From Escherichia coli (GTDB taxonomy: Bacteria; Pseudomonadota; Gammaproteobacteria; Enterobacterales; Enterobacteriaceae): DNA of 583 nt. Positions within the stretch are counted from its first letter, which is position 1. Every line of letters begins with the position of its first letter. A model generated the notes under the pieces. That model saw nothing but the letters and a program-made list of their open reading frames with translations, did no database searches and had not been told where the DNA came from. This document shows positions 1 through 583 of the stretch, one piece after another. Location of the stretch: assembly GCF_003334255.1 (NCBI RefSeq), contig NZ_QOWU01000221.1; one strand, 5' to 3'. The translations under genes were made by a program, and so were the position numbers.

Positions 1-77
1 TGAGTTACCGGTTCAATATTCCAGACAGACTCGCGGTTCATTTAAGCATCCATGCCCGCCCTGAACTCCGGGCACAC
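1..77 (-). mobile_element. Putative group II intron, 5' terminal fragment (start of domain I); intron continues beyond window position 1
   Basis: Read on the minus strand, the sequence immediately after the IS-derived exon ...GATGTGACCTATA is GTGTGCCCGGAGTTCAGGGCGGG..., matching the group II intron 5' consensus GUGYG and resembling known bacterial intron starts (e.g. Ll.LtrB GTGCGCCCAGATAGGG, recalled from memory). IS911-like coding similarity stops exactly here; the 22 codons read through into this segment end in a stop and do not resemble transposase sequence. No domain V/VI or reverse transcriptase ORF is in the window, so this rests on the terminal motif and context only. Confidence 0.5.
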
Positions 78-78
78 T

Positions 79-504
79 ATAGGTCACATCACCGCACCAC
101 ACCTGATTTGGTTCCGTTACGGCGAACTGTCGCTCAAGATGATTCGGGATAGCAACGTGCTCATGACCGCCACGCTTATACCGGTGAGTCGGCTGCTGGC
201 AACTGACCAGCCCCAGCTCTTTCATGAGTCTGCCAGCAAGCCAGTGCCCCATCTGGTAGCCTCTCCGGGTTGCCATTGTGGCGATGCTTCTTGCTCCGGC
301 AGAGCCGTGGCTGATGCCATGCAGTTCAAGTACCTGGCTGCGTAATACAGCCCGTCTGCCGTCTGGTTTTTCAGGACGGTTTTTCCAGTATCTGTAGCTG
401 CTGCGATGAACCCCGAACACATGGCAGAGTGTGACCACAGGATAATGCGCTCTGAGTTTCCTGATTATCGAGAACTGTTCAGGGAGTCTGACATCAAGAG
501 CGCG
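79..504 (-). pseudogene. insO: IS3-family (IS911-like) transposase OrfB, N-terminal fragment of about 142 codons, truncated after ...VWCGDVTY by the intron-like insertion and cut off from its orfA/frameshift site by IS30
   Basis: Most of this lies within six-frame ORF 13..438 (minus), whose GTG 'start' at 438-436 is internal; the same frame stays open upstream to about 504 (…[23 protein letters not shown]…). Native OrfB is made as an OrfAB fusion by -1 frameshifting, so no independent start is expected. The last IS-derived codon is TAT (79-81); the DDE catalytic core downstream of the first Asp is absent. Symbol insO is by analogy to E. coli K-12 IS911 orfB, from memory. Confidence 0.8.
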
Positions 505-506
505 GT
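465..506 (-). pseudogene. insN: IS911-like OrfA (transposition regulator) C-terminal fragment: 13 codons plus stop ([13 protein letters not shown])
   Basis: Minus-strand frame one nucleotide offset from orfB reads ACC GCG CTC TTG ATG TCA GAC TCC CTG AAC AGT TCT CGA TAA, with the stop at 465-467. The remainder of orfA and the slippery site lie upstream of this point and are displaced by the IS30 insertion. Symbol by analogy to E. coli K-12 IS911 orfA, from memory. Confidence 0.6.
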
Positions 507-532
507 TGTAGATTCAATTGGTCAACGCAACA
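507..532 (+). repeat. IS30 left terminal inverted repeat (IR-L, about 26 bp)
   Basis: TGTAGATTCAATTGGTCAACGCAACA at the element terminus. The 26 bp length is from established knowledge of IS30; the right-hand copy is not in the window, so the exact extent cannot be confirmed here. Confidence 0.65.
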
Positions 533-540
533 GTTATGTG
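513..540 (+). promoter_or_regulatory. Candidate sigma70-like promoter for the IS30 transposase inside the left end (-35 TTCAAT 513-518, -10 TATGTG 535-540, 16 bp spacer)
   Basis: Weak hexamer matches found by eye. IS30 is known to have a transposase promoter in its left end, but the exact hexamers here are my inference. Confidence 0.25.
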
Positions 541-555
541 AAAACATGGGGTTGC

Positions 556-560
556 GGAGG
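556..560 (+). promoter_or_regulatory. Shine-Dalgarno sequence GGAGG for the IS30 transposase gene
   Basis: GGAGG lies 8 nt upstream of the ATG at 569, separated by a T6 spacer. Confidence 0.6.
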
Positions 561-568
561 TTTTTTGA

Positions 569-583
569 ATGAGACGAACATTT
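569..583 (+). CDS. insI: IS30 transposase, 5' partial (first five codons, MRRTF); continues beyond window
   Basis: ATG AGA CGA ACA TTT at 569-583, preceded by GGAGG. This matches the IS30 InsI N-terminus (MRRTF...) as I recall it. Too short for the ORF track to report. Confidence 0.75.

Follow-up and report, generated by a model that had tools for sequence, protein, structure and literature searches.

The 583-bp stretch of Escherichia coli DNA analysed here (the window; position w corresponds to position 8000 + w of our source locus, L001) is occupied from end to end by parts of three mobile elements: a group II intron, an insertion sequence (IS) of the IS3 family, and IS30. The features are as follows.

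1–77, minus strand: 5′ part of an intron assigned to E.c.I4, the first 77 of 2270 nt, with GUGUG starting at position 77
78–84, minus strand: candidate IBS1, the last 7 nt of the 5′ exon (ACCUAUA in the IS sense), from a pairing search
78–506, minus strand: piece of an IS911/ISEc52-type IS3-family element, 429 nt, about nt 334–762 of ~1250, holding the end of orfA and the 142 N-terminal codons of orfB (504–79) up to ...WCGDVTY
505–506: one copy of a 2-bp target-site duplication, GT on the plus strand and AC in the IS911 sense
507–583, plus strand: left end of IS30 (IRL at 507–532, transposase ATG at 569)
507–532, plus strand: IS30 IRL, 26 bp, TGTAGATTCAATTGGTCAACGCAACA, an exact match to the K-12 IS30 IRL
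533–583, plus strand: leader and transposase start, with Shine-Dalgarno GGAGG at 556–560, ATG at 569–571 and codons MRRTF

The whole window is 100% identical to 10 complete E. coli chromosomes (E = 0), and hundreds more match at lower identity. The 100% matches are fec-linked and belong to non-K-12 strains; in the two of these genomes that we inspected, JKHS016 and NCTC10973, the window is located downstream of fecABCDE. The locus is a fec/KpLE2-type island with integrase, recombinase and AbiJ-like genes close by, which bears out an earlier reading of the window from its letters alone (the sequence-only reading) that had placed it in accessory DNA. Under the window PGAP annotates an 'IS3 family transposase' pseudogene, flagged as 'missing N-terminus and C-terminus', a small pseudogene called 'hypothetical protein', and the beginning of a gene named 'IS30-like element IS30 family transposase'. 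Past IS30 on one side, and on the other past ltrA (a group II intron reverse transcriptase), more IS3-family fragments follow, and the annotated order at the locus is IS3 fragment, ltrA, IS3 fragment, IS30, transposase fragment.

Along the minus strand, the first feature of the source locus is the IRL of the IS3-family element, and the sequence continues through orfA to the A AAA AAG heptamer and GGCTAC, followed by the 1221-bp IS30. Beyond IS30 come ACCGCG, the 142 orfB codons ending in ...GTGACCTATA, and the 2270-nt intron (GTGTG–CTCTAC); beyond the intron come TCTGGACGGG, the remaining orfB and the right inverted repeat. Uninterrupted copies provide the empty sites: a copy without IS30 (L004) reads continuously as GGCTACCGCG at the IS30 site, and copies without the intron (L005 and E2865) read continuously as GTGACCTATATCTGGACG at the intron site. 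Because both sequences are unbroken in the empty-site copies, 506/507 and 77/78 are the exact insertion points. The sequence-only reading had proposed that three unrelated mobile elements meet in the window; IS30, an IS3-family IS and E.c.I4 are all identified, and judged by the identities and the empty sites, its three segments, with their strands and boundaries, were exact to the base.

All nucleotides at 507–583 agree (77/77) with the left end of IS30 copies, K-12 IS30A and IS30D among them, and the complete IS30 of the source locus differs from K-12 IS30 copies by 0–3 nt. The element is 1221 bp long with 26-bp terminal inverted repeats (TGTAGATTCAAT...); its IRL differs at three positions from the IRR TGTAGATTCAATCTGTCAATGCAACA, which is located at L001 9702–9727. 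The transposase ATG at window position 569 corresponds to IS30 nt 63, and the full open reading frame (L001 8569–9720, 383 aa) scores 277 bits with the NF033563 IS30 family transposase profile against a cutoff of 80. The second AC copy of the target-site duplication lies outside the window, past the far IS30 end, and the flanks read ...GGCTAC-IS30-ACCGCG... versus the uninterrupted GGCTACCGCG. A 2-bp target duplication is the published signature of IS30 (PMC9333248). The coupling of orfA to orfB is broken, as the sequence-only reading had stated, because IS30 follows the A AAA AAG heptamer at a distance of 5 nt. With 1.2 kb now lying between orfB and the part that holds orfA and the slippery site, the OrfAB transposase can no longer be made. 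We also observed that, at precisely the IS30 site, the E2865 copy contains three additional bases (GGCTAC-A-ACCGCG), likely an excision footprint.

The translation of window 79–504 (minus strand) matches the NCBIfam profile NF033516, 'IS3 family transposase', over profile positions 88–225 of 369 (E 7e-35); its score, 120.9, does not reach the cutoff of 160 set for full-length proteins, which is expected of a 142-aa fragment. At the nucleotide level, the 429-nt fragment is 100% identical to the uninterrupted fec-linked E2865 copy, 97.4% to PGAP-named ISEc52, 97.4% to the K-12 element annotated as 'IS911A-1', and 94.2% to PGAP-named IS911. Its variable sites form a mosaic, IS911-like over the ~140 nt that come first in the IS sense, beside IS30, and ISEc52-like from there on. 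An IS911 isoform in the strict sense would share some 95% or more of its nucleotides with the IS911 reference, and the name of the element rests on K-12 and PGAP annotations, which disagree (IS911 vs ISEc52). By these identities, 'IS911' is a group-level name here, the fragment being nearer to ISEc52 than to PGAP's IS911 and a mosaic of both.

To rebuild the element, we removed the 1221-bp IS30, one AC copy and the 2270-nt intron. The resulting ~1250-bp sequence aligns as a single piece at 99.8% identity to the uninterrupted E2865 copy from the same locus, and is collinear with intact copies of ISEc52 (96.5%) and IS911 (95.3%; PGAP names). It reads ...ATA TTA AAA AAG GCT ACC..., with orfB in the –1 frame relative to orfA; the slippery heptamer A AAA AAG is itself outside the window, past IS30. 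An in-frame orfA–orfB fusion through a five-A slippery run, as considered for the PGAP-named 'IS911' in L012 and for K-12 IS911B, was rejected since translation puts orfB in the +1 frame. The left inverted repeat and the orfA part lie past IS30, and the right inverted repeat and the rest of orfB lie past the intron. Both terminal repeats (IRL TGAAGTGGTTTACTGAATTTGGCCACC and IRR ...GTTGACCACAACA), found outside the window, are collinear with ISEc52 and end in 5′-TG...CA-3′. The termini are thus intact and of ISEc52 type, displaced by 1.2 kb (IS30) and 2.3 kb (intron). A 1-nt deletion immediately ahead of the HSDQGSHY catalytic motif is shared by E2865, and is therefore independent of both insertions. 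As no OrfAB can be made across IS30 and the catalytic region has this deletion, the host element is dead. The sequence-only reading had held that the element lost both termini and can no longer transpose. Of these two statements the former does not stand, the element being full-length but interrupted; the latter does, with a different cause, namely the two insertions and the 1-nt deletion.

We then considered the other end of the window. The minus strand from position 77 reads GTGTGCCCGG, starting with GUGUG; these 77 nt are the 5′ end of the intron, at the start of domain I, and the other 2193 nt are located past window position 1. In the source locus, the intron spans 2270 nt (GUGUG...CUCUAC) between ...GTGACCTATA and TCTGGACG... 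in orfB. Its ends agree with the boundaries of group II introns (5′ GUGYG and 3′ AY, with exact insertion relative to the empty site). Domain V/VI was detected outside the window by Rfam RF00029 (64.9 bits, gathering score 40) at L001 5808–5894, extending to the last intron base. The 502-aa intron protein is a reverse transcriptase (RT)/maturase (TIGR04416, 341 bits vs cutoff 300) with the Pfam domains RVT_1 and GIIM; a Pfam search revealed no endonuclease/HNH domain in it. An Rfam search of the whole intron at permissive E-values returned only domain V/VI families and none covering intron nt 1–77, and the assignment of window positions 1–77 to the intron is based on contiguity and homology, with no covariance-model match inside the window.

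Over 1764 nt, the intron shows 99.66% identity to the fragment in prophage CP4-6 of K-12 MG1655, which is listed as 'E.c.I4-tr1', class A, prophage CP4-6, 1764 bp in Table S2 of Leclercq & Cordaux 2012 (PMC3522654). Under the naming rule of that study, introns with >90% nucleotide identity to the reference E.c.I4 carry its name. Applying the rule through E.c.I4-tr1 rather than through the Zbase reference, we assign the intron to E.c.I4, class A, on the basis of nucleotide identity; E.c.I4 is described in the intron literature as a class A intron without a D/En region. According to PMC3522654, E.c.I4 has specific insertion positions in IS3-like transposases, those of IS629, IS911, ISEc16 and ISEc31, and we found related introns at the same site in genes annotated as ISEc31, IS629 and IS911. 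E.c.I2 was rejected as the IS911-resident intron, since the same source puts E.c.I2 in Rhs-associated IS and E.c.I4 in IS3-family elements (PMC3522654).

In RNA letters, the exon join at the intron site is ...GGUGAUGUGACCUAUA/U. The candidate IBS1, ACCUAUA, can pair (G–U allowed) with a single 7-nt stretch in intron nt 100–600, UGUGGGU at nt 263–269. By our own estimate about 0.12 such pairings are expected by chance, and local folds gave no clear loop placement for this candidate EBS1. A convincing EBS2 was not found by the EBS/IBS pairing search and local folding. The proposed EBS1/IBS1 pairing is suggestive only.

We next turn to how widespread the arrangement is. Among 5426 complete E. coli genomes, the intron/IS junction is present in 1301 and the junction of the IS with the IS30 IRL in 795. 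Chimeric junction queries found both junctions together, as in the window, in 224 of the 5426 genomes, and the intron together with a flipped IS30, the K-12 type, in 371. Chance is excluded, because 10 genomes match the whole window at 100% and each junction is seen in hundreds of complete genomes.

Several other accounts of the window were weighed against these data. Multicopy repeats are the usual cause of misassembly, and all three elements are of this kind; the three-part junction could accordingly be an assembly chimera made from collapsed repeated IS copies. However, 224 complete genomes, finished independently of one another, carry the exact arrangement, the fec-linked locus is the same in both genomes inspected, and the target duplication is proper and the empty sites match, which leaves practically no room for a chimera. 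It could also be that the IS3-family piece is a deletion remnant that has truly lost its two ends and simply borders on IS30 and the intron, given that no IS3 terminal repeat occurs within the 583-bp window and that PGAP flags the coding sequence as lacking both its termini. Yet each missing part resumes exactly on the other side of its insertion; IS30 is flanked by a 2-bp duplication, and the exons at the intron join seamlessly. Uninterrupted IS911 and ISEc52 copies are collinear with the rebuilt element, both terminal repeats included, and we consider a remnant very improbable. Finally, the window might come from, or be best matched by, K-12 CP4-6 (the IS911A-1/IS30A/ykfC region), which the sequence-only reading had named as the place to look for the best match. 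CP4-6 does have the same three elements with identical junction positions, and is 97.4% identical over window 1–532. There, however, IS30 is inverted and 14 mismatches are present. Because of this inversion, the alignment ends at window position 532, 26 bp into IS30, and 507–583 match only the opposite strand, 1.2 kb away. With the 100% matches found at the fec-linked locus of non-K-12 strains, CP4-6 turns out to be a sister arrangement; an origin there is refuted for the K-12 reference sequences, and we give it next to no credence. We conclude that the window is almost certainly the central piece of one IS911/ISEc52-type IS, interrupted by IS30 and by E.c.I4, near fecABCDE on a non-K-12 chromosome. 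All of its sequence is attributable to known mobile elements, in line with the earlier opinion that nothing here is novel, and the finding is an ordinary one of a kind already known.

How the two insertions arose can be proposed from the literature on these element families. IS30 inserts via a circular IR–IR intermediate, and its hot-spot targets are nearly palindromic, with a 2-bp duplication (IS30 literature, including PMC9333248). Here, IS30 would have entered AAAAAAGGCT[AC]CGCG by copy-out-paste-in, 5 nt downstream of the –1 frameshift heptamer, duplicating the AC dinucleotide and coming to point away from orfB. E.c.I4, being En-minus, would have retrohomed in sense orientation between ...GTGACCTATA and TCTGGACG..., a known conserved homing site in the IS3 family, by reverse splicing into the DNA target. 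The primer for En-minus introns is presumably supplied by replication, and this would apply to the present copy too. Since the intron is in sense orientation, splicing could in principle restore orfB RNA; in the window arrangement, orfB is cut off from the IS911 promoter by the antisense IS30. As to the order of events, IS30 probably came first, because copies exist that have IS30 but lack the intron and are 100% identical (one such copy, H140, is identical over the orfB part). Recombination among IS copies, visible as allele mosaics, makes this order uncertain.

IS30 was also observed at the homologous site, with AC at the junction, in other members of the IS3 family: in IS911/ISEc52 (in both orientations), in ISEc31 and in IS600. 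The sequences concerned are AAAAAAGGCT[AC]CGC in IS911/ISEc52 and ISEc31, and AAAAAAAGCA[AC]AGC in IS600; many genomes have, at 100%, the uninterrupted IS600 sequence ...AAAAAAAGCAACAGCG... It is conceivable, though we hold the idea only tentatively and think it rather doubtful, that IS3-family elements have, immediately 3′ of their –1 frameshift heptamer, a short stretch that is a conserved natural hot spot for IS30 in either orientation. In the lambda LHS hot spot, AAAAGTGGCG[AT] resembles the left half-site AAAAAAGGCT[AC] with the same spacing, a comparison that involves one natural half-site, and insertions at LHS-type hot spots share the 2-bp target duplication with the IS30 of the window. 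The palindromy of the IS911 target is weak (6/14 positions).

The opposite orientations of IS30 in the window and K-12 types could instead be the product of an in-place inversion. Both orientations share one insertion point and one flanking dinucleotide, no more than 0–3 nt separate the IS30 copies, and IS30 is known to promote inversions (PMC9333248). On the other hand, the orfB-side flank alleles differ by orientation class at 9–11 of 429 nt, mostly in the first ~140 nt (orfA-side mismatch counts of L004 and L012 were left out of the allele comparison, as a 1-nt indel shifts their register). The insertions at the homologous site in IS600 and ISEc31 are necessarily separate events; natural IS30 targets other than IRs have been described as near-palindromes, into which the element can go either way round; and IR-targeting yields only IRL–IRR junctions, i.e. 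direct tandems (PMC9333248). A comparison of SNPs between IS30 copies was uninformative as to inversion or reinsertion, with only 0–3 nt differences. Because the flanking alleles differ between the orientation classes, we favour independent insertions and regard in-place inversion as unlikely.

Two IS30 copies have hybrid flanks. IS30D in K-12 KpLE2 is bordered by the orfA side of IS911 (IS911B) at one end and by the orfA side of IS600 at the other; the copy in L009 is bordered by the orfB sides of ISEc31 and IS911. We take these flanks as signs of IS30–IS30 recombination. If the hot spot is real, a whole group of competing insertion sequences would have had orfA repeatedly and specifically uncoupled from orfB by IS30. 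IS3::IS30 copies formed in this way would also serve as substrates for IS30–IS30 recombination, accounting for the hybrid flanks in KpLE2 and L009, and the window would be one instance of the pattern. A recurrent IS30 site in IS3-family frameshift windows would be a small but testable point on IS30 target choice.

In practical terms, this fec-linked polymorphism is a common one: besides the 224 genomes of the window type, hundreds carry sister forms. Its junctions can be used as lineage markers. The three 'incomplete IS3 family transposase' pseudogenes and the one 'hypothetical protein' annotated by PGAP are a single split IS911/ISEc52-type element. Past annotation, the finding has little importance.

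The intron of the source locus is one more copy of a described element. Published full E.c.I4 copies span 2271 bp (PMC3522654), compared to 2270 nt here, and share with it the sense insertion at a fixed position in IS911-type orfB. Like known E.c.I4, it encodes an RT and a maturase and has no endonuclease domain, and nothing material differs; what sets the present copy apart is that its host IS was also struck, earlier or later, by IS30.

K-12 KpLE2 (IS911B, IS30D, IS600 fragment, IS911B-1) resembles the window in its surroundings, adjoining fecE and including a yjhV-like small open reading frame, and in having an IS911-type element with IS30 at the same site. Unlike the window locus, it has no intron and is missing about 120 nt of orfB, and its IS30D has the hybrid flanks described above; window positions 78–386 are only 92% identical to it. 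The closest K-12 counterpart, already annotated and published, is CP4-6 (NC_000913.3 270206–273992), with the order IS911A, IS30A, IS911A-1 (429 bp), E.c.I4 fragment (ykfC), IS5A. It shares with the window the IS30 insertion point, the AC duplication and the intron insertion point. It differs in the opposite orientation of IS30, so that the IRR rather than the IRL abuts the orfB side; in its intron, which is cut at nt 1764 by IS5A, whereas the window-type intron spans 2270 nt; and in its location in a thrW-linked prophage as opposed to a fec-linked island. The IS flanks are also distinct: those of CP4-6 are ISEc52-like throughout, but in the window allele the ~140 nt closest to IS30 are IS911-like.

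IS30 is found at one homologous site in several IS3-family elements, just 3′ of the A AAA AAG frameshift heptamer that lies between orfA and orfB. It occupies this site in IS911/ISEc52 (in both orientations), in ISEc31 and in IS600, and the dinucleotide at the junction is AC in all three hosts; where IS600 is uninterrupted, AC occurs only once at this position. The junctions at this heptamer-proximal site are as follows.

Window 505-507: IS30 junction
Locus L003, 5076-5077 and 6297-6298: IS30 junctions
Locus L005 (copy without the intron), 2929-2930: IS30 junction
Locus L006 (K-12 KpLE2 region), 4459-4460 and 5680-5681: IS30 junctions
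Locus L009, 2541-2542 and 3762-3763: IS30 junctions
Locus L010, 2506-2507: IS30 junction

The slippery run itself varies: it has only five A's (TTAAAAAGG) in a copy named IS911 by PGAP (L012, about 615-625) and in K-12 IS911B (L006, 4445-4459). Five A's place orfB in the +1 frame and not in the –1 frame, so that an in-frame fusion was rejected as a reading of these copies.

The left end of IS30 also attracts a gene call of its own.

Window 492-572, + strand: PGAP ‘incomplete hypothetical protein’ pseudogene, running from the IS911 fragment through the IS30 IRL

It ends in a TGA that overlaps the ATG of the IS30 transposase, and the same call is made at IS30 left ends elsewhere (next to ISEc31 and IS600); the pseudogene has the look of an annotation artefact. 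Outside the window, the annotated K-12 small RNA EyeA (NC_000913.3, 272580-272654) falls within a fragment of the group II intron E.c.I4, at about intron nt 390-464, and may be no more than a stable segment of the intron's RNA.

Outside the window, the host IS shows further changes. At its left tip the terminal 8 bp are in tandem duplicate (TGAAGTGGTGAAGTGG; 10061-10075 of the source locus, L001), as they also are in strain E2865. A 1-nt deletion in the C-terminal part of orfB (L001, about 5650; GTTCCA-GGCGATCAA vs GTTCCACAGCGATCA) causes a frameshift immediately upstream of the conserved HSDQGSHY motif. Interrupted and uninterrupted fec-linked copies have this deletion in common, and the host IS was therefore already inactive irrespective of the insertions. 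Past the IS pile-up, the island (L001 10091-15912) holds genes for an AbiJ-NTD4 domain protein, an HTH protein and a member of a recombinase family, as well as a DUF1643 gene with a frameshift, possibly defence or integrative-element cargo adjoining fec.

The flanks of some IS30 copies are hybrid. K-12 IS30D (L006, 4460-5680) lies between the orfA side of IS911B and the orfA side of IS600, and the L009 copy (2542-3762) between the orfB sides of ISEc31 and IS911. Such flanks mark recombination or inversion events in which the partners were IS30 copies residing in different IS3-family elements. The 429-nt fragment is itself a mosaic, with IS911-type variants in the ~140 nt adjoining IS30 (window 367-506) and ISEc52-type variants in window 78-366, and in L004, a copy without IS30, the allele is purely of IS911 type on the upstream side of the intron and of the window type on the downstream side. 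These mosaics point to frequent recombination among IS911-group copies.

IS30 has probably also left the site. The otherwise uninterrupted, 99.8% identical fec-linked copy of E2865 (L011, about 2840-2850) reads GGCTAC-A-ACCGCG, that is, two copies of AC and one additional A, precisely where IS30 is located in the window (506|507 junction). We interpret the extra bases, across which the reading frame is preserved, as a probable IS30 excision footprint.

The site inside IS3-family elements looks like a recurrent hot spot for IS30, and it is similar to the left half-site of LHS, a hot spot in lambda.
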